A DNA stretch of 64,000 bases. It comes from Desulfuromonadaceae bacterium. GTDB taxonomy: Bacteria > Desulfobacterota > Desulfuromonadia > Desulfuromonadales > JAHYIW01. The notes beneath the pieces were generated by a model. The model was not told the origin of the DNA and did not search any database. It worked only from the letters and a program-made list of their open reading frames with translations. This document shows positions 5,408 to 50,370 of this stretch, one piece after another. Where the stretch lies: NCBI GenBank assembly GCA_019429445.1, contig JAHYIW010000002.1, positions 37,964-101,963 on the forward strand, written 5' to 3'. The position numbers and the translations under genes are program-made. Every line of letters begins with the position of its first letter. Positions within the stretch are counted from its first letter, which is position 1.

Positions 5408-7012
5408 CTAATCTGCTAACTCGCTAAAGATATAATTAGAGCTGCCACTCACCTGAGGGTTCTGCTCTCTCCCATATTGCCGACGAGCCATGTAGGACAC
5501 TTCCAAGTCCAAGTAACGCTTTAGTTCAGCCAAGCTGACTTTGTTGTCAGCATTGCCTGACTTACCTTTATCAGCATCACCATTTATGCCTTTAAGGAAA
5601 TAGCTCGTGAACAGTCCATGTTTAGCTTCTGTGTCCCATGAAGCGACTTCACCGACATTGGTTGCTGTCAGGACATTTATCTTACTCGATGTCTTGGGCA
5701 TTGATATTGGTTTTAAAGATATGGATGACGCATTGCGAATAATTGTTCCTGCCTGGGAACTTCCAGAGAAGCATGCGTCCAGGACAACTGTAATGCTCTT
5801 TGCTGACAGCTTTTCTAGATTGGCGTATAAGGTGTCAATTGAGTAGCCATTGAGTTCTACCGTTGAAGGGTCTGCATTTACAGGCAGTAAGTATCCACTA
5901 CCATCTTTAAGGCTTGGTGCTCCGTGACCAGAGTAGTAGAAAAATACATCTGATTCGTTGGGTCGAACCCAGTTAAAGAGTTTTCCCATGTGAGATTCTT
6001 TGTTTCCAAGTGCAGATACCATTTGCGCCTGAGATGCGTTCTCAAGATAGAGAATATTGCCTTCCTTGTAGCCCTTAGCATTTACCAGATATTCTTTAAT
6101 CGCTGCTGCATCATTGATTGCGTAATCGACATCTGGCACTGAGTTTCCAGATTTAGAGTAGTCTTTGTTGCCTACAATCAGGGCTATAGAGGAGTCATTG
6201 TTAAAATTTTTGCTATTGAAGTTACTGTCTATTAATTTTTGAGCATAAAAATTTGGTTTCAGTTCTTGAATATTTTCTAGGCTGTATTTTTTCAATAAAG
6301 ACATGGCTTTCGCGGCATCTCTTTTTACGTTAGGGTGAGGATCATCAAATGCAGCATTTTGGATTAAGCTATAGATATCTTCTGTTACATATTTAGATCG
6401 CGAAAGGAGCTGAAAAACATGCCTTCTTCTGTTGGCTTTGCTCTGAGTAATCTCTGTAATAATGCCTGTTGAGGCACGTTCAATCACCTCACTGTGCAGG
6501 CTACGGTTGTTGACAAGGTATATTGAAAAGGAGGTTTTTATCAAATAGTCCATATTTTTAGACATTATTTTTGCGTAATTTATTAAGTCATCCGTGTAAT
6601 AGTCGTGATCAATTAGAGATGAAATTATCAGTGCAACGATATTTCTGTGCTTCTCCTCTTTCACATGGTCGGCAAGGAACTTTACAGCGTTTTCGTGTGG
6701 TGAATTAGCTAATAATTTTGCAATTTTAGCTCTTTCCCGATCTTGTGTCTCTTGGGGAAGAAGAAGCCCCAAACGCTCTATTAATTCATTATCTTCAAGA
6801 GAAAAAGGGTTGTTAATTGCCGTGCCAATCGCTTTTGAGAAGTGCCTATTTTTAGTGTCAAAAATAATCTTTTTTAGTACATCATTGCCAGCTTGTGTAT
6901 AAAGTTGGCTCTCTTTGGTGAGGCCATATTCCTCATACCAAGCACTACCAAAGAATCCACAGCAGAACATAAACACGAGCAGGCAAAATAGCAGGGATAA
7001 TAAGCGATTCAT
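5408..7012 (-). CDS. exported HEAT-repeat protein with C-terminal caspase-fold (peptidase C14) domain
   Basis: N-terminal hydrophobic signal/anchor (LLSLLFCLLVFMFCCGFFGS). HEAT-like helices (SPHENAVKFLADHV; DDPHPNVKRDAAKAMSLL). C14 His and Cys contexts FFYYSGHGAP and VVLDACFSGSS. AT-rich relative to neighbours. Confidence 0.8.
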   Translation of the reverse strand: MNRLLSLLFCLLVFMFCCGFFGSAWYEEYGLTKESQLYTQAGNDVLKKIIFDTKNRHFSKAIGTAINNPFSLEDNELIERLGLLLPQETQDRERAKIAKLLANSPHENAVKFLADHVKEEKHRNIVALIISSLIDHDYYTDDLINYAKIMSKNMDYLIKTSFSIYLVNNRSLHSEVIERASTGIITEITQSKANRRRHVFQLLSRSKYVTEDIYSLIQNAAFDDPHPNVKRDAAKAMSLLKKYSLENIQELKPNFYAQKLIDSNFNSKNFNNDSSIALIVGNKDYSKSGNSVPDVDYAINDAAAIKEYLVNAKGYKEGNILYLENASQAQMVSALGNKESHMGKLFNWVRPNESDVFFYYSGHGAPSLKDGSGYLLPVNADPSTVELNGYSIDTLYANLEKLSAKSITVVLDACFSGSSQAGTIIRNASSISLKPISMPKTSSKINVLTATNVGEVASWDTEAKHGLFTSYFLKGINGDADKGKSGNADNKVSLAELKRYLDLEVSYMARRQYGREQNPQVSGSSNYIFSELAD

Positions 7013-7195: not shown

Positions 7196-7756
7196 TCAAT
7201 TGGAATCGACAAACAAACGAAACCGGATAGCTCCATAACGGCGGTCGTCGCACAAGGTAAAGGCGCGGTTAACGACATCCAGCTTTTCTTTTGTCCCGGT
7301 TTCAACGCAGATGATACCGTTTCTGCCCAGCAGCTGCATTGCAGCAAGCATGGCCAGGGTGGCCTCCGCCAGCCCCTTGCCGTAGGGCGGATCGAGAAAG
7401 ATCAGGTCAAAGGGCGCTTTGTTCAAAACCTGTGGCGGTAAATGCAATACATTGCTGCGCACCAGGGTCACCTTGTCGGACAAGGCACAGCCAGCCATGT
7501 TACGGGTAATCAGTTCGATCGCCTGCGGATTATTGTCGACGCAGGTGGCACTGGCGGCACCGCGACTGACGGCTTCGAGAGCCAACGCCCCGCTCCCGGC
7601 AAAAAGATCAAGAACGCGTATACCGTTCAGGGAACGGCAGCGGCTGAGCAGAATACTGAAAAGGGCTTCACGGGCGCGGTCGCCGGTGGGGCGAATCTCC
7701 TTACCGGTAAACGTTGCCAGATGTTTTCCCCGGGCGCTACCGGAAATGATGCGCAT
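7196..7756 (-). CDS. rsmD: 16S rRNA (guanine966-N2)-methyltransferase
   Basis: MRIISGSARGKHL...RPTGDRAREALF...LDLFAGSGALALEA...DPPY motifs. Start placed at the internal ATG at 7756. Confidence 0.85.
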   Translation of the reverse strand: MRIISGSARGKHLATFTGKEIRPTGDRAREALFSILLSRCRSLNGIRVLDLFAGSGALALEAVSRGAASATCVDNNPQAIELITRNMAGCALSDKVTLVRSNVLHLPPQVLNKAPFDLIFLDPPYGKGLAEATLAMLAAMQLLGRNGIICVETGTKEKLDVVNRAFTLCDDRRYGAIRFRLFVDSN

Positions 7757-7796
7757 AAATAATTCTCTTGTAATTGCGGGAGGTTGCCTGTGGATA

Positions 7797-7825
7797 AAAT
7801 TAGCACGGGGAGGAACGTTGGTCAA
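7797..7825 (-). promoter_or_regulatory. candidate sigma-70 promoter for rsmD
   Basis: On the minus strand: TTGACC, 17-nt spacer, TAATTT, about 40 nt upstream of the rsmD ATG. It directly abuts MITE copy 1. Confidence 0.35.
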
Positions 7826-7844
7826 GTAACGCAGCGCGGGACTA

Positions 7845-8005
7845 GTACCCAGTAACCCATAATCTTTCGTATCTGGCTGGTTCTTTGGCGTGTCAGCTGC
7901 GTTGCGATTTTAGCTGTTTAACTCTGGCTAGGCAGCTGAAATCACGCCTTGCTGACCCGCCAAATCCCTGCGCCATCTTTCGAAATCCTATGGGTTACAG
8001 GGTAC
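7845..8005. mobile_element. 161-bp MITE, copy 1 (TA-flanked, about 17-bp terminal inverted repeats)
   Basis: Ends gtacccagtaacccata / tatgggttacagggtac. Flanked by TA on both sides. 138/161 positions match the copy at 50191-50351 by hand alignment. The two halves are extensively self-complementary. Confidence 0.7.
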
Positions 8006-8526
8006 TACTCTTTTTGGGCAACCTGCATGCTCTCCAGCAGGGCGCGTTCTTTGCGGATCGCGCTACTGCTGTATGCCCAGATATGATAATTTTCCAGCCC
8101 CATAACGCTGGTCCCGGAAAAAAAAACGGCCCAGAAATTATCCAGAAGGGCACCGGACAGATGGTAAAAGATATAGAAAGCGCAAAAAAAAGCGGTATGC
8201 ATCCATCCAAGGAAAGGCGTAATGTTATGGCTCATTCTTGCCAAGGTTCGGACAATGCTCGAAAAGGCATATATAACCAGGGCCAAGCTGATCATGGTTG
8301 CTGGCGGGGGGGTGCCGAGGAGTTGTCGCACCTCAGTACCGAGGGCAGGGAAGATTGAAAATTCATAAAAAGCGGACAAGCTCACCAGCAGAAACAGAAC
8401 CATTGCCCAAAGACCACTTCCGGCGATTCGTTCAAGGGTCTTGATGCGTTTTTCGATGCGTTCTCGCAACTTTTCCCGATCGGGAAAGGGACGCACCTCG
8501 CGGGGGGATTCCGCCTGGCTCATCAT
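8005..8526 (-). CDS. hypothetical integral membrane protein (about 4 predicted TM segments)
   Basis: AAGGAG precedes ATGATG. Four hydrophobic stretches. Last gene of the minus-strand operon. Its TAG stop (8005-8007) is built from the last base of the MITE plus the flanking TA. Confidence 0.55.
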   Translation of the reverse strand: MMSQAESPREVRPFPDREKLRERIEKRIKTLERIAGSGLWAMVLFLLVSLSAFYEFSIFPALGTEVRQLLGTPPPATMISLALVIYAFSSIVRTLARMSHNITPFLGWMHTAFFCAFYIFYHLSGALLDNFWAVFFSGTSVMGLENYHIWAYSSSAIRKERALLESMQVAQKE

Positions 8527-8588
8527 TAGCTCCTTCTGCCCACCACAGAGTGTTCAAAACTGAACCAACTGTAACATAACGATCAGTT

Positions 8589-9434
8589 TTAGGACAGAGA
8601 ATCTGGCGAATTAACACCCTGTTCCTTGTGTAACAAACGGTGTTCGAGATCTTTTACCTTGTGAGACATTTTTTGAAAGGCATGGGCCAGCCGGGCGATA
8701 TCACCGCTTACTTCCGGAAAATCATCCTCAAGCATGCCGTTCTGGGGGGTTTCAGTAAAGTTGGTCAGTTTTTTGATTGGCAAAAAAACCTGGTTGTACA
8801 GGATGGCAAAAACAGCCCCGACAGTCAGAATCAGAACCATCCCGCTGAATATAATCATGCGGTTTTTCAGCTGTCCGAGCGTCTGTTTGAGAGGGGACTG
8901 AGAGAGGCCAATATCGATTGTTCCAAGCAGTTTCTGGTCGGCATTATGTTCGTGGCAGGACGCGTTGGAACATTCCGGTTCATTGTAGATCGGTGCGGTG
9001 ATTGCCAATACGCTGTTGCCGGCGTCATTGGTAAATTGGCGTGCTTGTGACATGGTGCCAAGACTGTGTTTCGGTTCTTCTCCGACGTGACACTCCTTGC
9101 ATCCTGCTGCTGATTTGTTGATAAACTTGTACCGTTCCCCACTTTCGCGGGTAAACATGATCAACCCCTTTTTATTGAAAATACGTAAATGTTCCACCTG
9201 TTTTTGTCCGCCGATGCTGCTGATGATGTTGCTCAAAGTATCCCGGTCATCTTTAAGCATGGCGTAGCGGGTTGATTTGATCACCGTATCGGCAAGATCA
9301 GCCGCATGCTGAATTTCACCCTCGGTCAGGTCTTCCTTGACAAAGCTGTATAAAAGCACACAGCAGGCAATGACAAATCCGGTAACAGCGCAGGCGACCG
9401 GGATGATAGCACGACTGTTTATGCTGCTGAGCAT
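8589..9434 (-). CDS. kinase-less periplasmic sensor protein (haem-motif sensor domain, TM and HAMP only)
   Basis: TM1, a periplasmic domain of about 170 aa with CKECH (CxxCH) and PECSNASCHEH, TM2, a HAMP-like segment, then a stop. The periplasmic domain is homologous to that of the kinase at 15515-17233 (NKPTCYTASCHVH). ATG at 9434 follows GGAG. Confidence 0.65.
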   Translation of the reverse strand: MLSSINSRAIIPVACAVTGFVIACCVLLYSFVKEDLTEGEIQHAADLADTVIKSTRYAMLKDDRDTLSNIISSIGGQKQVEHLRIFNKKGLIMFTRESGERYKFINKSAAGCKECHVGEEPKHSLGTMSQARQFTNDAGNSVLAITAPIYNEPECSNASCHEHNADQKLLGTIDIGLSQSPLKQTLGQLKNRMIIFSGMVLILTVGAVFAILYNQVFLPIKKLTNFTETPQNGMLEDDFPEVSGDIARLAHAFQKMSHKVKDLEHRLLHKEQGVNSPDSLS

Positions 9435-9500
9435 GATGTGACTCCTTGCGCTATTCATATGACTGCGGGACCGCAACGGGCGGTCCCGCAGTCATGCTTT

Positions 9501-10841
9501 TTAATCGATCCGGCGATACAGGGCACCCGCCGGTAAGGGAGCTGTGGTGATCGTATTTGTCTTGACTGCTTCTGCGGCAAGGGCTTCTTGCGGTTGCTCT
9601 TTCCACGCATAAAGAATTGGCAGCCGATAGAGGATAAAGCGATAGACCACAACGTAGATTGCAAAGACCGTCACGGTGATGAGCACTTCAAATACGTGAG
9701 GGATCTCCTGATAGAGTTGCCAGTTGAAAGTGATGAGTGCGGTATTTAAACGATTCAGGACAATGCCAAAGACGGTGATAAATGCTCCCAGCCGGGCCAG
9801 ACCAACCATGCGATGACGAATCGCGTAGGCGAAGAGCACAATCGGCAGGACCACGCCGAAGCCGATTTCAGCCATAAACCAGGCGCCCCAGCCGGTGGCC
9901 AGATACCCCCACTCATTATCGTGGGCAATGCCGATCAATTTGATGGCCAGGTAGGTGATCAACGCCAGACTGGCCCCTTTGGCCAGACCCAGAGTACAGC
10001 GGTCGAGATTGTCGAGAAAGTTTCTGTCACAGCGCCAGCTCATGGTTTTTCTGACGATGGTGCTGACCGCGATCACCATGCAGAGCCCCGCCGGAATCGA
10101 CGAACAGAAGAAATGAATCCATTGAAACGACGCTGAATACCAGAGTGGGTGAACCTTTCCCGGTGCGTAAGTGAACAGCGCCCCCAACGCCCCCTGGTGA
10201 AGGGTTGAGAGAATGATACCGGCGATGGTCAGTCCGATGGCAATCCGGCGCACAAAGCGTTTACCCCCCAGCCACCCGATCCATTCGAAGAAGGCGACAG
10301 ATACTTCAGCGACCTGTACCGACAGATAGGTGGCGACGTGCCAGGCGACCAGAAAGAGCACTGCGGCCGGCCCGAAAGAAACCACCATCGGGTAGGGTAA
10401 TCGCCACGGCTGACCAAGATCAACCAGCAAGTAGACGACAGCAAAAAAGTACCCCAGCAGACCGTTAAGCAGGGCCAGGCGTTCAATCGGCTCGAAATCG
10501 TGGCGACCGAAGATTTCAACGGTTGTTCCGAGCATGAATCCTGACGCAGAAAGTGGCACCATTGCAAACAGACCAAAGCCCAGAAACAAACCCCAGGGAT
10601 AGTCGTTTGATGCATGAGTGACGACGCCGAGTCCGAACAGATAACGATAGGCGATCAATGGCAGTCCGATCGCGAAGATGATCCCCAGAATCCAATTGAA
10701 CGGATTGCGTAACGCCTGCCCGAAATACTGTCCTGGGGTCAGCCCGAAAAAGAGTTTTTGTTTTAGGCTCCAGCTATGGCGAGACTCTTTGTTGATCGGT
10801 GAATCAACGAGTTTCACCCCGCATTGAATCAGACTTTTCAT
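9501..10841 (-). CDS. NrfD/PsrC-family quinone-interacting integral membrane subunit
   Basis: 446 aa, highly hydrophobic with many TM helices. Overlaps the upstream FeS-subunit gene by 4 nt, as is typical of NrfD-type complexes. Confidence 0.8.
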   Translation of the reverse strand: MKSLIQCGVKLVDSPINKESRHSWSLKQKLFFGLTPGQYFGQALRNPFNWILGIIFAIGLPLIAYRYLFGLGVVTHASNDYPWGLFLGFGLFAMVPLSASGFMLGTTVEIFGRHDFEPIERLALLNGLLGYFFAVVYLLVDLGQPWRLPYPMVVSFGPAAVLFLVAWHVATYLSVQVAEVSVAFFEWIGWLGGKRFVRRIAIGLTIAGIILSTLHQGALGALFTYAPGKVHPLWYSASFQWIHFFCSSIPAGLCMVIAVSTIVRKTMSWRCDRNFLDNLDRCTLGLAKGASLALITYLAIKLIGIAHDNEWGYLATGWGAWFMAEIGFGVVLPIVLFAYAIRHRMVGLARLGAFITVFGIVLNRLNTALITFNWQLYQEIPHVFEVLITVTVFAIYVVVYRFILYRLPILYAWKEQPQEALAAEAVKTNTITTAPLPAGALYRRID

Positions 10842-11794
10842 TGTTCATCTCCCTCGTCGCCTGGTGTTGTGTCGGCGGTTTGGTCATGCCCCTCATGGCC
10901 GTCATGTTTTTTTGCAAGGAGGTGGAAACCGGCAAACATTGCGGGCCAGATGGCGAGAACCATCGGCACGGTGCCGAGGAAATCCTTCACCTGATTGATA
11001 ATTGGATCGTTCCCCGGATTCGGGTCGAAACCCACTTCGCTAAAGGGTACCGGGGACAGATACATCCAACTGGTTCCACCCAACTCGTTTTCTCCATAGA
11101 TTCGATTCACGTAGCGGCCTGGGTGTGTCTGAATGCGGTTATTTCCGATTTTGAGTAGTTCCTTGCGCTTGCCGAAGGTTAGTGCTTCCTGCGGGCAAAT
11201 CTCGACACAGGCCGGTGGCAGGCCATTCTTCAGCCGTGTTTCGTGGCAGAAAATACACTTTTTAACGACTGGATCAAAGGCGCTGGAGTAACTGTAGCCA
11301 GGGATGTGAAACGGGCAGGCAATCATACAGTTACGGCAGCCAACACAAACTTTGGAATTATAGATGACAGCCCCTTCCTTCGTTTTGGTATAGGCATTGA
11401 CAAAACAGGAGGTGAGGCAGGCAGGCTCGCTGCAATGATTGCACTGCACTTTGCGGTAAACGGGCTGATCGCTGCTGGCAGGTTGGTAGCGATTTACAAC
11501 CGTATAGGCATTTTCATCGGGACGCCGCAACTGTTTGCCGTCATGGAAAGTTTGGTCAAACACTGATTTGTCATCAAAAGGTAACTCCGGTGCTGGCAGC
11601 TGTTGCTCCTTGTTGCAGGCTGCTTCGCAGCTGCGGCAGCCGACGCAGCGCGTCAAATCGACCAATACCCCCATGCCCTCCGGGTAGCCGGAAAATGATC
11701 CGCTTGCCAGGGCTTTTTTTGTGCCGGCCAAAGTTGTGGCGGCACATCCTGCCACACTCGCGGCAAGAAATCTTCGTCGACTGATTCCACTCAT
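10838..11794 (-). CDS. Tat-exported 4x[4Fe-4S] ferredoxin-type subunit (NrfC/HybA-like) with C-terminal TM anchor
   Basis: Twin-arginine signal SRRRFLAAS. Four Cys clusters (CVGCRSCEAAC, CNHCSEPACLTSC, CVGCRNCMIACP, CIFCH...CVEICP). C-terminal hydrophobic helix and an acidic/His tail. ATG at 11794 follows AAGGAGAG. Confidence 0.85.
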   Translation of the reverse strand: MSGISRRRFLAASVAGCAATTLAGTKKALASGSFSGYPEGMGVLVDLTRCVGCRSCEAACNKEQQLPAPELPFDDKSVFDQTFHDGKQLRRPDENAYTVVNRYQPASSDQPVYRKVQCNHCSEPACLTSCFVNAYTKTKEGAVIYNSKVCVGCRNCMIACPFHIPGYSYSSAFDPVVKKCIFCHETRLKNGLPPACVEICPQEALTFGKRKELLKIGNNRIQTHPGRYVNRIYGENELGGTSWMYLSPVPFSEVGFDPNPGNDPIINQVKDFLGTVPMVLAIWPAMFAGFHLLAKKHDGHEGHDQTADTTPGDEGDEQ

Positions 11795-11834
11795 AACGAC
11801 TCTCCTTATCCTCAAAAACATGCTTCGGTGAATG

Positions 11835-12362
11835 TCATTTCAAATCAAACAACTGTTTGACCCAATTCGTGTCAACGGGGGACGCATCCGCGTGAAACAA
11901 GGCGTCGCCGTCCGGCGTTCTGGTATGACACGTCTGACATCCCGTTGGCCCATTCATCGTTTCATGGCAACCGACGCAGTTCCAGTGATACACCGCTTTC
12001 AGGCCGGGTTTGTCGATATGAAACTGGTAGCGGGACAGGGCTTTTTGATTAAGGTGTTCCGCAGAAAATGGATCGACGACATGGCAATCACGACATGCAA
12101 CGTTAGCGACACCGTCACTGTCAGTATGGCAGCTTACGCAACGTGAGTCGGTTGTTCCTGTTCCGGTGGTATGATGATGGCAGTGCGAGCAATCTTCCCC
12201 CAACTCGGTATGCATGGCATGATCAAATTTGACGCCGGAGAAATACTTGACCATGGTATCGAGCGACACTTGTTCAGGCATGTCGCCTGCCAGACTCAGG
12301 CTACCTGTCGCGAGGATCGACACCGCCATGATCAAGGTAACTCCGAATAACTTAGCGTTCAT
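11835..12362 (-). CDS. periplasmic pentahaem c-type cytochrome
   Basis: Signal peptide plus five CxxCH motifs (CSHCH, CVSCH, CRDCH, CVGCH, CQTCH). ATG at 12362 lies 8 nt after AGGGAG. Confidence 0.85.
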   Translation of the reverse strand: MNAKLFGVTLIMAVSILATGSLSLAGDMPEQVSLDTMVKYFSGVKFDHAMHTELGEDCSHCHHHTTGTGTTDSRCVSCHTDSDGVANVACRDCHVVDPFSAEHLNQKALSRYQFHIDKPGLKAVYHWNCVGCHETMNGPTGCQTCHTRTPDGDALFHADASPVDTNWVKQLFDLK

Positions 12363-12399
12363 AATTATCACTCCCTTTACTAAAGATCGCCCAGCAACA

Positions 12400-12570
12400 C
12401 TATTTGTTGGCGTCAGCGGAATTTGAATTCAAATACTTATAGTACATCGGGAAAGCGATGAAAAATGCCACACAGATCAGGTATTCAACGCCCTTGATAT
12501 ACTGATAGTAATCGACCAAGGTGTGAACACTCTGCCACTCACCTATCGATTGAAGTACCTGTTCAATCAT
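12400..12570 (-). CDS. 56-aa hypothetical membrane mini-protein (not in ORF track)
   Basis: Read by hand: GGGAGGAAAAA-ATG, MIEQVLQSIGEWQSVHTLVDYYQYIKGVEYLICVAFFIAFPMYYKYLNSNSADANK, one TM helix. It fits the 245-nt gap between the flanking operon genes. Confidence 0.5.
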   Translation of the reverse strand: MIEQVLQSIGEWQSVHTLVDYYQYIKGVEYLICVAFFIAFPMYYKYLNSNSADANK

Positions 12571-12615
12571 TTTTTCCTCCCATAAATTCGTTACAATTAG
12601 CGGTTCCTGATCAGA

Positions 12616-12858
12616 TCAGTTTTTTTTGCCACTATATGCCGCCTGCTTTCCTTCTCCCTTGATCAGTCCCTTGATAAACCCGACCAGCAAGATGATTGTT
12701 GGCATCAGCTGCACCAGAATAATCAAGGCACAAAAGGCCAGGAAAGAACCAACCAAAATTCCGCTGGAGTAAGTCTTGGTTGTGTCCACGGCAAAGGCTG
12801 GTTCTATCATCAGTGCCAACATCGAGAGTCCCATCAGTAAACTTCTGAACTTTTTCAT
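12616..12858 (-). CDS. small exported/membrane protein, paralogue B
   Basis: MKKFRSLLMGLSMLALMIEPAFA signal, then GILVGSFLAFCALIILVQLMPTIILLVGFIKGLIKGEGK. Paralogous to 13354-13578. ATG at 12858 follows GGAGG. Confidence 0.6.
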   Translation of the reverse strand: MKKFRSLLMGLSMLALMIEPAFAVDTTKTYSSGILVGSFLAFCALIILVQLMPTIILLVGFIKGLIKGEGKQAAYSGKKN

Positions 12859-12898
12859 AACGCCTCCGTTAAGTTGTTGACTCATGTCATTATTGCAG

Positions 12899-13300
12899 TC
12901 ACACGTCTGCAGAATCGTGAGTCACTTTTTCAAACGCACATTTGACCGCCTGACGTAACTCTTCCTCATCGCCCGGACGGATCGGCTTGAGGGCGTGGTA
13001 GAAAATTCCCTCACTGCGCGCCTTGCGAATTAATGCTAAGGGGAGTTCGCTGGCAACCAGAATGATGGTCAGATTGCGGTTACACTTTTTAAGGATCGGA
13101 ATTAATTCAGTTGCCAATAATTCATCAAAGCGGGGGCTAAGCAGGACAACCTGGGCGGTTTTTTTAAGGATCCCGTAAAGAGCTCCCGCCGCTGAGTTGG
13201 GCACAGATACTTGATAACCCGCTTTGATGAATAGATCTGCCATACGTTTTCTCGACAACACGTCTTCGTCTGCGATCAGTAATCCTGGCATGTGCATCAT
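12899..13300 (-). CDS. stand-alone receiver-fold protein lacking the phospho-acceptor Asp
   Basis: The CheY-like pattern LLIADED...VVLLSPRF...IILVAS...HALKP keeps the acidic pocket and the Lys-Pro. The position normally Asp (LLD) is Ser. ATG at 13300 follows GGGAG. Confidence 0.65.
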   Translation of the reverse strand: MMHMPGLLIADEDVLSRKRMADLFIKAGYQVSVPNSAAGALYGILKKTAQVVLLSPRFDELLATELIPILKKCNRNLTIILVASELPLALIRKARSEGIFYHALKPIRPGDEEELRQAVKCAFEKVTHDSADV

Positions 13301-13353
13301 TGTTATTCTCCCACCCAAGGCCAGACGGTATTGGTTCACCCGACGTGTTGCGG

Positions 13354-13578
13354 TTAGCTCTTATTGACCGTTGTTTTTGCTTCTTTGGAGAACAATCCCC
13401 TGATCAAACCGAAAAAAAGAATCATCGCCGGAATTAATTGGGACACAACGATCAATGCAAAGAATCCAATGAAAAAATAAGTCAGAATTCCTGTTTCTCC
13501 TTCTGGTGTACCAGCTGCGGCATAAGCGGCTGAAGCTGATCCAGCCATCATCGTTGCCATCATTCTCAGTGTTTTCAT
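13354..13578 (-). CDS. small exported/membrane protein, paralogue A
   Basis: Signal-like N-terminus, then GILTYFFIGFFALIVVSQLIPAMILFFGLIRGLFSKEAK. GAAGGAGG RBS. First gene after the sigma-54-type promoter. Confidence 0.6.
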   Translation of the reverse strand: MKTLRMMATMMAGSASAAYAAAGTPEGETGILTYFFIGFFALIVVSQLIPAMILFFGLIRGLFSKEAKTTVNKS

Positions 13579-13652
13579 AACGGCCTCCTTCTCGGGTTGT
13601 TGAACATATTCCGTCGCCGGAGATTCTTGCTCCGGCTTTGAGTAAGGACTTG

Positions 13653-13668
13653 TGCAGGATTTGAACCA
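13653..13668 (-). promoter_or_regulatory. candidate sigma-54 (-24/-12) promoter
   Basis: Minus strand reads TGGTTCAAATCCTGCA. GG and GC have the canonical TGG-N9-TGC spacing. It lies about 75 nt upstream of the 13578 start and downstream of a sigma-54 activator gene. An AT-rich region with palindromes lies 150-250 bp further upstream. Confidence 0.5.
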
Positions 13669-14062
13669 AAATTTGAAAAACTTAATAAAAAGCGCAATTA
13701 GCTGTTTTTTAAGGATTTATTCAATGGTCATAAAATGGAACGCGATTCAGAAAAGATGCAGGTGTATAAATAAAATATGCGTCTGGAAGTGGCCGGTTGC
13801 CACGTTTGAGCGGGAAATGCTTATAACTTGCTGAAAATAAATACGTTTTTTTAAGCATATAAAAAATAATAAAAATATACGGTATGTATAAATATTACAT
13901 ATATGCAGGAAGGTGGGTGTCTGTGAGAAAGATTTGTGCGGCTGCTATCGATGAATGGACGGACAGCTACCGACACCGGATAGAATGTAACACAGCGCAA
14001 TATTGATGGCGTTTTACGGGGCTGGCTGCTGTCTGGCCCGGTAAAAAAGTAAAAGCGAGATA

Positions 14063-15493
14063 TTACCTCACTACCCGAGCATTGATGCTGATCCCCTGTT
14101 TTTTGAGCATCGCCTGAAAATTCGTCCGCAGCATTCCGACCTCCTCTGCGGCCTTGGTGATATTCCAGTCGTTGCGATCCATGGCATTGAGGAGGAATGC
14201 TCGCTCCAACGGCAGAACCGCTTGTTCACGCAGCAATTGTTTGCGTTCCTTGAGTTCATTGGCATCCAGCGGAACAGTTCCGGAAACGTCCGTTGCCACG
14301 ACAACGCGATTATCATTGTCCTCCGGGATCTCCAGATCCTGACACTGAATAAGGTCAGATTGGGTCAGGACCACGGCCCGTTCAATAATGTTTTCCAGCT
14401 CGCGCACATTGCCGGGGAAGTCGTACTGTTCCAGCCGTTTGCAGACATCAGGGCTGAACCCTCTTATCTCTTTTCCGTTTTCTTCAGCAAAACGTCTGAG
14501 AAAATGGCTTGCCAACAACATCAGATCCGCGCGGTGTTCACGTAATGCAGGGAGTTCAATGGGGATAATATTAAGCCGAAAAAACAGATCCTCACGGAAA
14601 GTGCCCTGCTTGACCATCGCCCGCAGGTTGGCATTGGTGGCGGCAACCAGGCGAATGTCAATAGCGACCAACTCTGTTCCACCGAGGGGGGTAATGACGC
14701 GTTCTTGCAGCACGCGCAGTAATTTAGCTTGTGTCGTCAGGCTGATATTGCCGATCTCGTCGAGCAGCAGTGTGCCCCCTTCGGCGACTTCAAACAAGCC
14801 TCGTTTGGTTTGTGTTGCTCCGGTAAAGGAACCTTTCACATGCCCAAATAATTCACTTTCGAGCAAGCTTTCTGCCAGAGAAGTGCAATCGATCGCAACA
14901 AACGGATGTGAACGTCTGGGGCTGTGGGTGTGAATCGCGCGTGCGACCAGCTCTTTGCCGGTACCACTTTCTCCGCTGATTAATACCGTGCTGTCGGTCG
15001 GAGCCACTTGCAGGATACGTTGATAAAGCCGTTTCATTTGGCGGCTGTTGCCGATCAGGCGATCGAAACCGCCGGTTTCAGTCATCTCGCGTCGCAGACA
15101 AATATCGTCGATCAGTACCGCTCTGCTTTCAATGGCGTTCTTGATCTTGTCGATTAATTCCTCGTTGGTAAATGGTTTGGCCAGATAATCCGTCGCACCG
15201 TTTTTAATTGCCTCCACAGCATTTTCTATCGCGGCGTAACCGGTAATCAGCACTACCGGGAGTTCCGGCTGACAGTTGCGGATCGCCTTCAATACATCAA
15301 GACCGCTCATTCCGGGCATCTTAAGATCGGTGACCAGGAGCCTGAACTGTTTTTGCTGTAAACGATCGAGAGCGGCACGACCGTTGCTGACCGCTTCTAC
15401 TTCGTACCCTTGCGCAGAAAGAATGCGTATCAATCCTTTGCGAATGACCGCATCATCATCGGCAACCAGAATCGTATCAATTTCGCCATTCAT
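14063..15493 (-). CDS. sigma-54-dependent response regulator (NtrC family: REC-AAA+-HTH)
   Basis: REC (LVADDD...LLVTDLKMPGMSG...KP), Walker A GESGTGKE, GSFTGA (GAFTGA variant), ELFGH and a C-terminal Fis-type HTH. Confidence 0.9.
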   Translation of the reverse strand: MNGEIDTILVADDDAVIRKGLIRILSAQGYEVEAVSNGRAALDRLQQKQFRLLVTDLKMPGMSGLDVLKAIRNCQPELPVVLITGYAAIENAVEAIKNGATDYLAKPFTNEELIDKIKNAIESRAVLIDDICLRREMTETGGFDRLIGNSRQMKRLYQRILQVAPTDSTVLISGESGTGKELVARAIHTHSPRRSHPFVAIDCTSLAESLLESELFGHVKGSFTGATQTKRGLFEVAEGGTLLLDEIGNISLTTQAKLLRVLQERVITPLGGTELVAIDIRLVAATNANLRAMVKQGTFREDLFFRLNIIPIELPALREHRADLMLLASHFLRRFAEENGKEIRGFSPDVCKRLEQYDFPGNVRELENIIERAVVLTQSDLIQCQDLEIPEDNDNRVVVATDVSGTVPLDANELKERKQLLREQAVLPLERAFLLNAMDRNDWNITKAAEEVGMLRTNFQAMLKKQGISINARVVR

Positions 15494-15514
15494 ATTGCCT
15501 CGCATTGTGAAGAT

Positions 15515-17233
15515 TCAGACTGTCGAAAGTGTGGCTGGGTTGTTGCCAATGTCACTGCTGTGCGGAAAGACTTGTTCCAATGACTCCTCGTTGTCGAGAA
15601 AAAACTGTTCATCAGCATGAGCGATGGTGTGAATTGGCAACTCAATAGTAAACACAGTCCCCTGATCAACAACGCTTTCAACCGCCACCTGACCACCGTG
15701 GTTCTGGATAATCCCGTAAGAGACGGAAAGGCCGAGTCCCGTTCCTGCCACACCGTTCAGTTCCTGATTCTTCGTCGTGAAGAATGGATCAAAAATCCTG
15801 CCCAGATTCTCTTCGGGAATCCCATGCCCGGTGTCAGCGATCGTAGTAATGAGTCGGTCACGTTTTAAATCGGTGCAAATGGCAATTTTCAGGCATCCGC
15901 CCTGCGGCATTGCGTGACAGGAATTGACCAGCAAGTTAATAAAAACCTGTTCCACTTGATTCGGATCAACGTCAATTTCAGGCAAGTCAGCACTGTAGTC
16001 GCGCTCAATTAATATATTGTTAACTTCAGCATGGTGCTTCACCAGTGATACGGTTTGTTCCATGATATGCACCAGGGATCGGGGTTGTTTTTCAGGGATT
16101 GATGTTCGCGAAAAGTCAAGCAGACGCTTAACAATATCGGCACATCGCTTTGTCTCATGCACTATGGTGAGAGCGTCATCGCGCTGCATTGCATCGAGTC
16201 GCGGATCAGCAGAAAAAATGTTGGCAAACATCAGGATGCCGGTCAGTGGATTATTGATTTCATGGGCGATACCAGCGACCAGCTGCCCCAGCGAGGCGAG
16301 TTTTTCAGATTGCACCAGTTGATCGCTGACCTTGGCGATTTCCTTGGTCCGTTCCAGCACTTTTGCTTCGAGTGTCTCAGTCAGTTCGCTGTATTCATCG
16401 CGGGATTGTTTCAAGTTAGCTGTCATATCGTTAAATGCATCAGCAAGCTCGCCAATTTCGTCGTTCGACTGCAGGCTGATGTGACTGTCGAGTTCCATGT
16501 TGGAAACTTTGCGCGCATGCAAAAGAAGATTATGTACCGGGCTGACGACCATGCTCTGTGTCATCCAGCTCAGACAAACAATCACCAGCATCAACAAGGC
16601 GACACCAAAGGTAGCAATACTGTTGCGGTAGGCGCTCTCCTGCACGCCGGTTTTGGCCAGTGAACCCTGGATTTCGAGAAAACCAAGGGTCGTGGTGTCT
16701 GCTTGATGGACATGACAGCTTGCTGTGTAACAGGTCGGTTTGTTTTCGATTTTTGTTGTGACACTGAGAATTTTTACGCCACTGTCGGTTTCGAAAATTT
16801 TTCTGCTGTCGTTGTGAAAAAGAAATTCGTCACTGTAGATGTCGATGTCATCATCATGGTATGTGTTGGTCGTATAAATCGGGTTTCCAATTTCTTGCTC
16901 GGTGGTGGAAAAATGGATCAGTCCGTCGTTGCCGATAAGGCGGATCCGTTCAATTTTTTCATGGGAACAGACTTCAGTCATTATCTCATAGACGCGCTGC
17001 CGATTGTCTTCCAGCATCTGAAAGTGTGTTGTGTGCAGGATAATTTCACTGATTGTCTCAATATCATCCTTGGCATCGTTTAAAAAAATTTTGCTGAGTG
17101 TTTTAAGGTTGAAAAAAGCAAAAATTGAGATGGTGATGAGCAGCACGACGCCGGTGCGAAAGGTAAATTTGCTGATAATGCTTTGACGAAGAGTCTTGAA
17201 GAGCGCCATGTCCAGCAATCTCGCAACCTTCAT
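15515..17233 (-). CDS. sensor histidine kinase with periplasmic Cys/His-motif sensor domain
   Basis: Two TMs flank a periplasmic domain with TCYTASCHVH. HAMP, HisKA (AHEINNPL) and HATPase (N, G1, G2 boxes) follow. The start is ambiguous (17233 or 17209; the track gives 17299). Confidence 0.85.
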   Translation of the reverse strand: MKVARLLDMALFKTLRQSIISKFTFRTGVVLLITISIFAFFNLKTLSKIFLNDAKDDIETISEIILHTTHFQMLEDNRQRVYEIMTEVCSHEKIERIRLIGNDGLIHFSTTEQEIGNPIYTTNTYHDDDIDIYSDEFLFHNDSRKIFETDSGVKILSVTTKIENKPTCYTASCHVHQADTTTLGFLEIQGSLAKTGVQESAYRNSIATFGVALLMLVIVCLSWMTQSMVVSPVHNLLLHARKVSNMELDSHISLQSNDEIGELADAFNDMTANLKQSRDEYSELTETLEAKVLERTKEIAKVSDQLVQSEKLASLGQLVAGIAHEINNPLTGILMFANIFSADPRLDAMQRDDALTIVHETKRCADIVKRLLDFSRTSIPEKQPRSLVHIMEQTVSLVKHHAEVNNILIERDYSADLPEIDVDPNQVEQVFINLLVNSCHAMPQGGCLKIAICTDLKRDRLITTIADTGHGIPEENLGRIFDPFFTTKNQELNGVAGTGLGLSVSYGIIQNHGGQVAVESVVDQGTVFTIELPIHTIAHADEQFFLDNEESLEQVFPHSSDIGNNPATLSTV

Positions 17234-17507
17234 AAATGGGGTCGAGGGTCGGGGGCACCCCCCAGCCAAACGGTCTTGCACATAAAACCTGCATCTCACC
17301 TTCGTCGTAACGAAACAATTTCAGTAGAATTTTGTGTTAATTTCTTTTAATTGTATATACTAAGGTGTAATTTTTGTCAAAGATTTGTTTCCAACTGAAT
17401 AAAGAACAGGAATATCTCGAAAAATTCTGGTTATTACCTCAAGTTTCTCAGCTGTGCCCGGAGCAACGCGTTTTTTTCAGCGATAAATTCGGACCATCAT
17501 CCCTTGA

Positions 17508-50069: not shown

Positions 50070-50190
50070 GTTTATGGTTCTCCATTCGTATCAATGTGCG
50101 TCCCTACGAAGTTAACCAGCCCGCACACGGTTTGTCAAAAGTCCATGTACATTCAGTCTTGTGCACCCTATAATGATTACAATTACTATA

Positions 50191-50351
50191 GTACCCAGTC
50201 ACCCATAATCTTTCGCATCTTGCTTGTTCTTTGCCGCGTCAGCTACGTTCCGATTTCAGCTGCTTAGCTACGGCTAGGCAACAGAAATCGCGCCTTGCTG
50301 ACACGTCAAAGCCCTGCGCAATCCCTCGAAATCCTATGGGTTGCAGGGTAC
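50191..50351. mobile_element. 161-bp MITE, copy 2 (TA-flanked)
   Basis: Ends gtacccagtcacccata / tatgggttgcagggtac, with TA on both flanks. Same length as copy 1 and about 86% identical. Ends 19 nt upstream of the M16 peptidase ATG. Confidence 0.7.
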
Positions 50352-50370
50352 TAACCGGAGGAAAGGACAT

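Follow-up and report, generated by a model that had tools for sequence, protein, structure and literature searches.

How Geobacter-type bacteria sense the redox potential of an electron acceptor and choose ImcH, CbcL or CbcBA is the question at stake here, and for cbcBA the activator BccR is, to our knowledge, the only known regulator. In Desulfovibrio, the Nhc-type complex links periplasmic cytochromes to the quinone pool and has no cytoplasmic HmcE/F pair, and the hmc operon has rrf1/rrf2, with sigma-54 two-component control and an accessory cassette not among its known features. The G. sulfurreducens cbcBA operon has a sigma-54 promoter upstream of GSU0597 and a divergently encoded activator, BccR, on which its induction at low redox potential depends; CbcA has seven haems and a C-terminal anchor, CbcB is a dihaem cytochrome b, and a terminator follows cbcB (Joshi et al., bioRxiv 10.1101/2021.04.15.440034). 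GSU0596 is annotated as a 'response receiver' (PMC10599522), and a sensor-type and a four-transmembrane (4-TM)-type protein of the Cbc5 complex are named CbcD and CbcE (PMC7894505 supplement). We analysed a 64,000-nucleotide stretch (the window) of contig JAHYIW010000002.1 from a Desulfuromonadaceae bacterium and found, at 8005–17299 on the minus strand, an 11-gene locus that reads as the cbcBA/BccR design built around a different, Hmc/Nhc-like core and equipped with a haem-based periplasmic kinase. An earlier note on this DNA had proposed the ensemble as an undescribed system; we find instead a paralogous variant of a described operon layout. The sigma-54-controlled Geobacter cbc operon that the same note mentioned is cbcBA/BccR (bioRxiv 10.1101/2021.04.15.440034). 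As a second sigma-54-switched module of the cbcBA design, the locus supplies a candidate sensor kinase and a candidate DNA site, GTATA-N7-TATAC, and it adds an Hmc/Nhc-type complex to the candidate quinone:cytochrome oxidoreductases of Desulfuromonadales.

The earlier note had read the locus, all on the minus strand, as a histidine kinase and an NtrC-type activator, an AT-rich gap and nine packed genes. The list of open reading frames (ORFs), together with Pfam and NCBIfam scans of their translations, on which our annotation is based, bears out this order and the boundaries. All 11 genes lie in 8005–17299, every substantial ORF in that interval is on the minus strand, intergenic spacing is short or overlapping, and the flanks are rsmD on the left (7196–7825, minus strand) and an M50 peptidase gene followed by scpA on the right (plus strand). 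The nine genes after the gap are all present in order, although they do not make one uniform block: a hairpin at 9458–9496 appears to divide the operon into seven plus two genes. No other multihaem cytochrome gene was found elsewhere in the 64-kb window, the remainder of which is housekeeping.

For comparison we scanned one genome per species with an alignment of the membrane subunit as query, retained the best 80 of at least 526 loci and compared all 11 window proteins with them in a tblastn matrix. The 80 loci are labelled Desulfuromonadales, Geobacteraceae, Geopsychrobacteraceae or related metagenome-assembled genomes (MAGs) and isolates, the isolates including Geotalea sp. SG265 (L064), Desulfuromusa kysingii DSM 7343 (L062), Pelovirga terrestris (L078) and strain IMCC39146 (L017); Geobacter sp. 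DSM 9736 is a further carrier of the locus. The 11-gene set recurs in the same order in most of them, the accessory genes being syntenic with the cytochrome, iron-sulfur (FeS) and NrfD-type genes as the earlier note had supposed, and the NrfD-type subunit is 67–97% identical across these best 80 loci. No exact match to the window's NrfD-type protein is on record; its nearest public relative (97%) belongs to a Desulfuromonadales MAG (L001), which is 94–99% identical throughout and shares the flanks, whereas the other loci are flanked differently. An order kept in dozens of genomes while the flanking genes differ indicates that the arrangement is not due to chance.

The respiratory core comprises four genes on the minus strand. 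The first encodes a 56-aa small membrane protein (12400–12570), which the earlier note had listed as a mini-protein but which is no orphan; it matches NCBIfam HmcD (E 0.0011 in the window; 16 of 24 orthologues, best 2e-05, all below the 34-bit cut-off), matches no other family and is present in 74 loci. It is followed by a periplasmic pentahaem cytochrome c of the c3/c7 class (178 aa, 11835–12371), whose five CXXCH motifs, already noted, are kept in 74 of 74 orthologues. Its best PDB matches are the C-terminus of HmcA (1h29 and 1gws, 2e-09), nine-haem cytochrome c (1duw and 1ofw) and PpcA/c7, and it matches NCBIfam HmcA (4.4e-10), aligning only to the C-terminal part of that 16-haem protein. 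The next gene (10838–11821) encodes an HmcB/HybA-like 4x[4Fe-4S] subunit of 327 aa with Fer4_11 and TAT_signal matches, 16 cluster cysteines, a C-terminal transmembrane (TM) anchor and an RRRF motif for export by the twin-arginine translocation (Tat) pathway, in agreement with the earlier description. Its NCBIfam scores are 393 bits for HmcB (cut-off 420), 200 for HybA, 89 for NrfC (cut-off 378) and 85 for DsrO, and in the PDB it matches FdnH (1kqf_B, 2e-25). The fourth gene (9501–10841), whose start overlaps the FeS gene by 4 nt, encodes an HmcC-like, NrfD/HybB-type membrane subunit of 446 aa. Its assignment to the NrfD type, also proposed earlier, is upheld by NCBIfam matches to HmcC (358 bits, cut-off 550), HybB (161) and QrcD (41), and PF03916 (NrfD) is annotated on some of its homologues.

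These Hmc-type matches support the earlier proposal of a quinone-interacting cytochrome/FeS/NrfD module, and from sequence we read the core as Hmc/Nhc-like without HmcE/F: no ORF for HmcE (a cytochrome b) or HmcF (HdrD-like) was found between 8005 and 17299. All four core subunits match Hmc models as their best family, and the FeS protein shares Tat export and a C-terminal anchor with its counterpart in Desulfovibrio Hmc. The four-subunit composition is that of Nhc, namely a multihaem cytochrome of the c3 family, an FeS protein, an NrfD-like subunit and a small hydrophobic subunit. The cytochrome here has five haems in 178 aa, however, against 16 in HmcA and nine in NhcA, the gene order is D-A-B-C and the host belongs to Desulfuromonadales, unlike Hmc; with five rather than nine haems and a different gene order, the core would work like Nhc rather than being orthologous to it. 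E. coli NrfBCD likewise lacks a catalytic molybdoenzyme and combines an NrfD-type subunit with a 4x[4Fe-4S] protein and a pentahaem cytochrome, but the cytochrome here is c3/c7-like, unlike NrfB; HybA and HybB of E. coli hydrogenase-2 are the second-best family matches (200 and 161 bits). No hydrogenase or formate dehydrogenase genes were found in the locus, and no nitrite reductase or hydrogenase genes nearby. We also considered Alternative complex III, which has a monohaem ActE, and rejected it on the single NrfD-type gene here (versus ActC and ActF) and the 327-aa FeS protein (versus the large ActB, with molybdopterin-like and FeS parts); the cytochrome matches 6lod_A, which we take to be pentahaem ActA, only weakly (6.6e-04).

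Extra cytochrome genes were seen inside two clusters. Between the membrane-subunit and sensor genes of Geotalea sp. SG265 (L064) sits a 254-aa cytochrome gene (11406–12170) with nine CXXCH motifs in three c7-like repeats, and at the same place L060 has a small inserted c7-like ORF. The nine-haem cytochrome of three c7-like repeats inside the Geotalea SG265 cluster points to c7-type periplasmic partners.

Upstream of the core, the AT-rich gap of about 480 bp with a -24/-12-like site that had been reported is found to span 484 bp (13579–14062; GC content about 0.33–0.41), and the site is conserved across loci. The element TGGTTCAAATCCTGCA (13668–13653 as read on the minus strand) has the -24 GG and the -12 GC in register with 10-nt spacing, 74 nt before the ATG of miniA, the first operon gene. 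A consensus search allowing up to two mismatches to TGGCAC-N5-TTGCW returned no site in the gap, and 41 overall against 39.7 expected from shuffles; it missed TGGTTCAAATCCTGCA because this element has three mismatches. We replaced that search by a GG/GC-anchored scan combined with comparison across loci, which found TGG[CT]A[CT]-N5-xTGCA ahead of the operon in almost all orthologous loci, including those where the 56-aa ORF comes first. Most of these elements lie about 30–75 nt from the first gene, with distances of 100–390 nt in a minority of more distant loci.

When the upstream regions were anchored on the -24/-12 element, a palindrome, GTATA-N7-TATAC, emerged at about -113 and often again at about -215. 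In 52 of 72 loci a copy lies no more than 300 nt upstream of a -24/-12 match, most often at -113 to -117, while only 110 sites with at most one mismatch exist in 1.34 Mb of locus DNA. In the window, the proximal candidate upstream activator sequence GCATATTTTATTTATAC (13764–13780) lies 112 nt upstream of the -24 element and is the sole match with at most one mismatch in 64 kb; a candidate distal activator site read from the sequence, GTATATTTTTATTATTT (13864–13880), has two mismatches and lies 212 nt upstream of -24, orthologues carrying their distal palindrome at -205 to -220. Between palindrome and promoter is an AAAACA-N5-TTA block that recurs in the same place in close orthologues, and we infer that AAAAACAGCTAATTG (13695–13709) is an integration host factor (IHF)-like site. 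All of these elements are given on the minus strand. Together they show the arrangement that is classic for sigma-54 promoters dependent on an enhancer; its conservation is consistent with activator binding and RpoN dependence and speaks for the control by sigma-54 and a bacterial enhancer-binding protein that the earlier note had suggested. Scans for sigma-70 promoter and terminator consensus sequences did no better than shuffles and were given little weight. The predicted 5' untranslated region contains a short hairpin, CCGGAG-caagaat-CTCCGG (13617–13635), downstream of the sigma-54 promoter and ahead of the ribosome-binding site of miniA.

The presumed activator of this promoter is an NtrC-type sigma-54 activator (14063–15505, minus strand; Response_reg, Sigma54_activat 1.3e-69, AAA_lid_14 and HTH_8). 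It has a receiver (REC) domain with Asp60, an AAA+ domain with a GSFTGA loop and a Fis-type helix-turn-helix (HTH), and its NCBIfam matches are AtoC/NtrC-like, below equivalog cut-offs. The gene is linked to the operon in 63 loci, either co-directional or divergent, the divergent arrangement occurring in more distant loci. Beyond it lies the sensor histidine kinase (ORF 15515–17299, minus strand, likely start ATG 17233 or 17209; HAMP, HisKA and HATPase_c), the N-terminal 250 aa of which are paralogous to the kinase-less sensor encoded at the other end of the operon (24.5% identity, E 3e-18).

The kinase-less sensor is a CbcD-type protein of 281 aa (8589–9434, minus strand, ORF to 9476). As the earlier note had reported, it is a sensor with no kinase: a TM segment is followed by a periplasmic PAS/Cache-like domain with CKECH and CSNASCH motifs, a second TM segment and a HAMP-like segment, with no output domain. 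PF21563 matches the window protein at 28.6–28.8 bits (cut-off 27) and 26 of 30 orthologues, and sCache_4 matches 21 of the 30. Single-sequence searches of the PDB with this sensor and with the NrfD-type protein gave no matches; a profile of 30 sensor orthologues rescued the sensor, matching 3b42 (2e-05) and 3b47 (1e-03). In that alignment the conserved N-E-x-x-C...C-H / CX4CH of the family falls on the CXXCH of both structures, which in 3b42 we take to be the haem attachment site. Among 67 sensors, CX4CH is retained by 64 and a further CXXCH occurs in 45; the corresponding counts for 44 orthologous kinases are 43 and 33. An AlphaFold2 model of the sensor (predicted local distance difference test, pLDDT, 66) has TM, PDC-type alpha/beta domain, TM and HAMP, and Foldseek places it near the sensor domains of WalK, KinD, CitA and DctB, with a WalK-YycH model (9a5d) as the best match.

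On this evidence both sensor domains are assigned to the haem-c PAS-like family of GSU0935/GSU0582, and the periplasmic sensor domain of the kinase most likely carries a covalent c-type haem. These chemoreceptor sensors (PDB 3B42 and 3B47) share the PF21563-type domain with an aligned motif. They differ in having CXXCH where CX4CH is found here, with a second CXXCH in many members, and in their output, a methyl-accepting signalling domain as opposed to HAMP alone or a histidine kinase. The window kinase keeps only CX4CH, the additional CXXCH being absent from its sensor (region 16800–16900), and may hold one haem instead of two.

We consider it probable that a haem-sensing kinase and an NtrC-type activator switch on, via the sigma-54 promoter, an Hmc/Nhc-type complex that joins menaquinone and periplasmic c-type cytochromes. 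The periplasmic haem domain of the kinase would read the redox state of the periplasm, and its domains predict that the kinase phosphorylates the activator on Asp60. The activator would then bind GTATA-N7-TATAC about 113 and 215 nt upstream, and DNA bending at the IHF-like site would help it open the promoter at 13653–13668. The predicted transcript encodes miniA, a pseudo-receiver, miniB, the HmcD-like protein, the pentahaem cytochrome, the HmcB-like 4x[4Fe-4S] protein and the HmcC-like subunit, with the hairpin after the NrfD-type gene lowering or stabilising expression relative to the genes for the haem-HAMP sensor paralogue and the CbcE-type protein. The four core proteins would form a complex coupling the menaquinone pool to periplasmic c3/c7-type cytochromes. 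The host group and the genomic association with cbcBA lead us to favour electron flow from quinol to the periplasm as the most likely direction.

Several observations count against this scheme. The -24 hexamer of the window is degenerate (TGGTTC) and its distal palindrome is poor; the HmcB, HmcC and HmcD scores of the core proteins all lie below the NCBIfam equivalog cut-offs; the window kinase lacks the CXXCH found in most of its orthologues; haem attachment at CX4CH is read from the alignment; the sequence does not tell which way electrons flow; and the closest families, Hmc, Nhc and HybAB, reduce quinone.

The last of these points opens a serious alternative, in which the complex runs as Hmc, Nhc and HybAB do, from periplasmic cytochromes to menaquinone, and hydrogenase or formate dehydrogenase, or else a syntrophic partner or a cathode, would supply the electrons. 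HmcB/HmcC and HybA/HybB are its closest families by score, and its cytochrome is nearest HmcA and nine-haem cytochrome c, which in sulfate reducers carry electrons from the periplasm to the membrane; and, like Nhc, which probably reduces the quinone pool, it lacks HmcE/F. Yet in several genomes the locus stands beside cbcBA, a quinol oxidase of extracellular electron transfer, and shares with it the accessory set and the sigma-54 logic; the hosts belong to Desulfuromonadales, a group that commonly uses menaquinol to respire Fe(III) or S0; and neither a hydrogenase nor a formate dehydrogenase is encoded in the locus. NrfD-type modules are reversible in principle and sequence cannot decide, but on balance we regard the reverse direction as a possibility on the unlikely side.

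The scheme in which quinol feeds the periplasm leaves five accessory genes to be accounted for, which the earlier note had seen as dedicated to the trio. Two are small paralogous membrane proteins, 38% identical to each other, for which neither Pfam nor NCBIfam gives a family: miniA (74 aa, 13354–13578, minus strand), conserved in 61 loci, and miniB (about 80 aa, or 89 aa as the full ORF; 12616–12858, minus strand, ORF to 12885). Each has a signal peptide that looks cleavable (AYA|A in miniA, AFA|V in miniB) and one TM helix with an invariant Q-L-x-P; miniB also has a conserved periplasmic VDTTKTY-SG motif. Between them lies the receiver gene (12899–13291, minus strand, ORF to GTG 13339; Pfam Response_reg 3.8e-07). 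That this receiver lacks its Asp, as first noted, holds across the family. In the window protein the residue opposite Asp60 of the activator is a Ser, and the Lys is retained but not the conserved Thr; among 56 orthologues the phospho-acceptor position is Ser in 40, Gly in 14 and Asp in two. The absence of the Asp is a family-wide trait, and we read the protein as a pseudo-receiver. It is the best-conserved protein of the locus among close relatives (for example, 89% in L003 against 84% for the NrfD-type protein). Likely true starts are ATG 9434 for the sensor (281 aa), ATG 13291 for the receiver and ATG 12858 for miniB.

The mini-receiver-mini cassette is separable from the complex, because miniA, receiver and miniB are missing from six Geopsychrobacteraceae loci that keep the core, sensors and regulators, and are relocated downstream on the opposite strand in the Pelovirga loci. 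A tandem duplication of the mini/pseudo-receiver unit was seen upstream of the core genes in L026 (5984–8161), L032 (6365–8185) and L045 (7044–7877).

The last gene (8005–8526, minus strand) encodes a CbcE-type membrane protein of 173 aa with no Pfam family above the cut-off. The earlier note called it a 4-TM protein; a membrane protein it is, but a Kyte-Doolittle (KD) hydropathy scan gives only two clear TM segments (residues about 34–59 and 74–96) after a charged cytoplasmic N-terminal helix. An AlphaFold2 model made with no alignment (pLDDT 61) has helices with no settled count and is too poor for a fold search. Among 1.84 billion proteins the family has 139 representatives at 50% identity, all of about 170–190 aa, and members of its clusters are named 'menaquinol oxidoreductase' by NCBI and UniRef. 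The family shows no invariant His or Cys pattern, and we rejected haem b binding through a His pair since no His is invariant across 97 representatives.

Comparison with cbcBA operons argues against dedication of these genes to the trio. In six of the 80 genomes (L029, L030, L031, L048, L053 and L056) a cbcBA-type gene or cassette adjoins the Hmc-like cluster. The only complete one, in L053 (7174–13709), consists of kinase, receiver and activator followed by mini, pseudo-receiver, mini, cytochrome, cytochrome b and 4-TM homologue; its cytochrome has 348 aa, seven CXXCH motifs and a C-terminal TM helix, and its cytochrome b is a 222-aa PF01292 protein. The other five are partial, several of them cut by the end of the locus. 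The cassette has its own kinase, receiver and activator in L029, L031, L048 (10–5476) and L053, while only cbcA/cbcB-like genes were detected upstream in L030 (1811–3487) and L056 (1161–1823). Four independent cbcBA loci fetched through their cytochrome b (L081–L084) also have minis, pseudo-receiver and 4-TM homologue, the last lying downstream of the CbcB gene in L053, L030 and L081–L084, which are the cbcBA-type loci readable there. The receiver copies of cbcBA-type operons have Gly at the phospho-acceptor position. The operons of L083 and L084 lie on contigs that also encode a protein, P0329, labelled by NCBI as Tichowtungia sp., a genus of Kiritimatiellota, which could reflect horizontal transfer or a binning error.

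Homologues of miniA, miniB, the receiver and the 4-TM protein thus occur in cbcBA-type operons, and the haem-HAMP sensor is linked to them through the published description of CbcD. We take the accessory genes to be of the families that accompany cbcBA operons, in line with the published G. sulfurreducens set (GSU0597, GSU0596, GSU3489, CbcD and CbcE, with BccR). The likeness extends to the layout of cbcBA/Cbc5 (GSU0590–GSU0598): a sigma-54 promoter with an adjacent REC-AAA+-HTH activator; a small protein, a 'response receiver' and another small protein ahead of the quinone oxidoreductase genes; a terminator after the last core gene, with a hairpin at the equivalent place here; and downstream, the HAMP-domain haem protein CbcD and the membrane protein CbcE. 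What differs is the core, which is HmcD-like protein, pentahaem cytochrome c, 4x[4Fe-4S] protein and NrfD-type subunit here in place of seven-haem CbcA and the PF01292 dihaem cytochrome b; no PF01292 or seven-haem protein was found in the window locus. The activator is about 35% identical to the cbcBA-linked activator, the kinase has a periplasmic haem sensor where the kinases beside cbcBA loci L081 and L083 are cytoplasmic GAF/PAS hybrids, and no 12-haem CbcC/OmcQ gene is present. The accessory families are thus named or annotated ones, but we found no paper that assigns a function to any of them.

We tentatively propose, with confidence that stops somewhat short of the probable, that the products of the five accessory genes provide signalling or feedback to the two-component system from within the operon and are not catalytic subunits. 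We favour a signalling role because the genes accompany two unrelated cores, because their folds are signalling folds, because the mini-receiver-mini cassette is lost or relocated while the core stays, and because the only output of the sensor paralogue is HAMP. The small membrane peptides and the kinase-less sensor paralogue might act on the kinase in the membrane, and the non-phosphorylatable receiver on the kinase or the activator in the cytoplasm. MgrB-PhoQ and YycH/YycI-WalK offer a functional analogy, with short single-pass membrane proteins under the control of, or encoded beside, the kinase they modulate; the proteins here have no sequence homology to these, and the interaction is purely hypothetical. 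Weighing against a regulatory role, the G. sulfurreducens annotation treats CbcD and CbcE as subunits of the complex (PMC7894505 supplement), the equivalence to GSU0590–0598 is drawn from published descriptions and the cbcBA-type loci of other genomes, and the role itself is argued from fold, distribution and analogy.

In an alternative reading, of which the earlier note had raised the assembly role, the five proteins would be structural subunits or assembly factors of the respiratory complex, the haem-HAMP protein serving as a membrane-anchored cytochrome that passes electrons on and the 4-TM protein and minis as extra membrane subunits. Tight operon linkage and strong conservation of the accessory genes fit this idea, as do the one or two haem motifs of the sensor protein and the small hydrophobic subunit, HmcD, of Hmc and Nhc complexes. 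We nevertheless judge it unlikely. The accessory families go with two structurally unrelated membrane cores, one of the NrfD type and the other a dihaem cytochrome b (PF01292); the sensor protein combines a sensor-kinase PDC fold with HAMP and is a paralogue of the kinase input domain; the receiver has the fold of a cytoplasmic signalling protein; mini-receiver-mini is absent from Geopsychrobacteraceae loci in which the core is kept; the 4-TM family has no conserved pattern of cofactor ligands; and a conserved hairpin sets the sensor and 4-TM genes apart from those of the core. Possession of one toolkit (minis, pseudo-receiver, CbcD and CbcE) by two unrelated cores argues for regulation over catalysis. 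The signalling role could be taken further, in a conjecture to which we give rather little weight: minis, Asp-less receiver, haem-HAMP paralogue and CbcE-type protein might constitute a portable, operon-embedded feedback device of sigma-54 two-component circuits that sets the redox threshold or the sharpness of switching and serves at least two unrelated cores (CbcBA and Hmc/Nhc-like), with the kinase as a direct sensor of periplasmic redox potential.

For the named Geobacter Cbc complexes, comparison was with published descriptions. The earlier note had held that these complexes are of the cytochrome/FeS/NrfD kind, which is true of Cbc4 but not of Cbc3 and Cbc6, which are described as Rieske plus cytochrome b complexes (PMC10989804; PMC2825233; PMC11434368), or of Cbc5, with its pair of dihaem cytochrome b and seven-haem cytochrome c. 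A Rieske/b core does not fit the present genes, which encode an FeS protein of the 4x[4Fe-4S] ferredoxin type and a membrane subunit of the NrfD/HybB type. We rejected Cbc6 (six genes, CbcMNOPQR), which has 10- and 12-haem cytochromes with a Rieske/b core (PMC2825233), and Cbc3 (CbcV, CbcW and CbcX), which shares a pentahaem cytochrome, CbcX, but has a CbcV described as a Rieske protein, the order V-W-X and fbp upstream (PMC10989804; PMC7894505 supplement); GSU1650, GSU1649 and GSU1648 are in the order FeS, b, cytochrome, with fbp adjacent (PMC7894505 supplement). Searches of the literature on 'Cbc2' and 'Cbc7-10' returned nothing relevant. The present core fits none of Cbc1 or Cbc3–6, being set apart by their descriptions.

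Cbc4 (CbcSTU, GSU0068–0070) comes closest, as the only named Geobacter Cbc complex described as having, as here, the gene for a cytochrome c followed by those for a 4x[4Fe-4S] protein and then an integral membrane subunit, and a trio orthologous to it would already be named. We think this quite improbable in spite of the shared order and general architecture (bioRxiv 10.1101/2025.04.14.648717). CbcS is a membrane-anchored tetrahaem cytochrome of the NapC/NirT (NrfH/CymA-like) type (bioRxiv 10.1101/2025.04.14.648717), whereas the cytochrome here, with five haems in all 74 orthologues, has no NapC/NirT match and is like c3, c7 and HmcA. CbcT is reported to be homologous to DsrO (PMC11434368), whereas the FeS protein here scores far higher with HmcB than with DsrO (393 against 85 bits). 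An accessory cassette or sigma-54 control is not described for Cbc4 in the literature examined. Among the best 120 homologues of the NrfD-type protein, which reach down to 69% identity, there is no G. sulfurreducens, G. metallireducens or Geomonas protein; the 120 matches listed each for the sensor and for the CbcB-like protein of L053 likewise include no GSU entry, metagenomic near-orthologues filling both. That the genes are chance neighbours or several independent units with a fortuitous -24/-12 match, as the three mismatches of the window promoter and the shuffle-level consensus scans might suggest, is extremely improbable given a gene order kept in dozens of genomes with different flanks, promoter element and palindromes at conserved fixed distances, and short or overlapping intergenic gaps.

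Two structured elements lie towards the 3' end of the locus. The first is the GC-rich 17-bp hairpin between core and sensor genes (9458–9496, minus strand), which begins 4 nt past the stop codon of the NrfD-type gene and, in the window and its close relatives, has no U-tract on the sense strand; the window copy has its T-run on the antisense strand only. It is conserved in position and not in sequence (L001–L078), and some distant loci add a U-tract. The 70 nt after the NrfD-type stop have a median minimum free energy of -31 kcal/mol, with 64 of 79 loci at or below -20, compared with -9 to -18 at the other junctions. This hairpin is a candidate intra-operon attenuator or 3'-end stabiliser, and its position suggests that expression of the sensor and 4-TM genes differs in level from that of the seven genes before them. 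The second is a palindromic repeat of about 165 nt (7843–8007, strandless) with 30-nt arms that adjoins the 4-TM stop codon and delimits the locus on its 3' side. It folds at -88 kcal/mol (z -9.5) and has a second copy at 50189–50353 (88% identical), and it looks like a dispersed intergenic element of the repetitive extragenic palindromic (REP) or miniature inverted-repeat transposable element (MITE) kind. An Rfam scan of 7700–17500 gave a single sub-threshold chance match and no family for the copy at 7843–8007, which may terminate transcription. Directly 3' of the activator stop, a weak terminator-like hairpin with a T-run (14054–14072, minus strand) was picked up by the consensus scan, a source of limited weight.

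To the left of rsmD, and separate from the locus, is a 534-aa ORF (5408–7012, minus strand) with a weak HEAT repeat as well as a caspase (Peptidase_C14) domain. Its neighbours are rsmD and a 163-aa ORF resembling coaD, and the GC content of this stretch is 0.35–0.39 against about 0.5 nearby; it is possibly a small inserted island.

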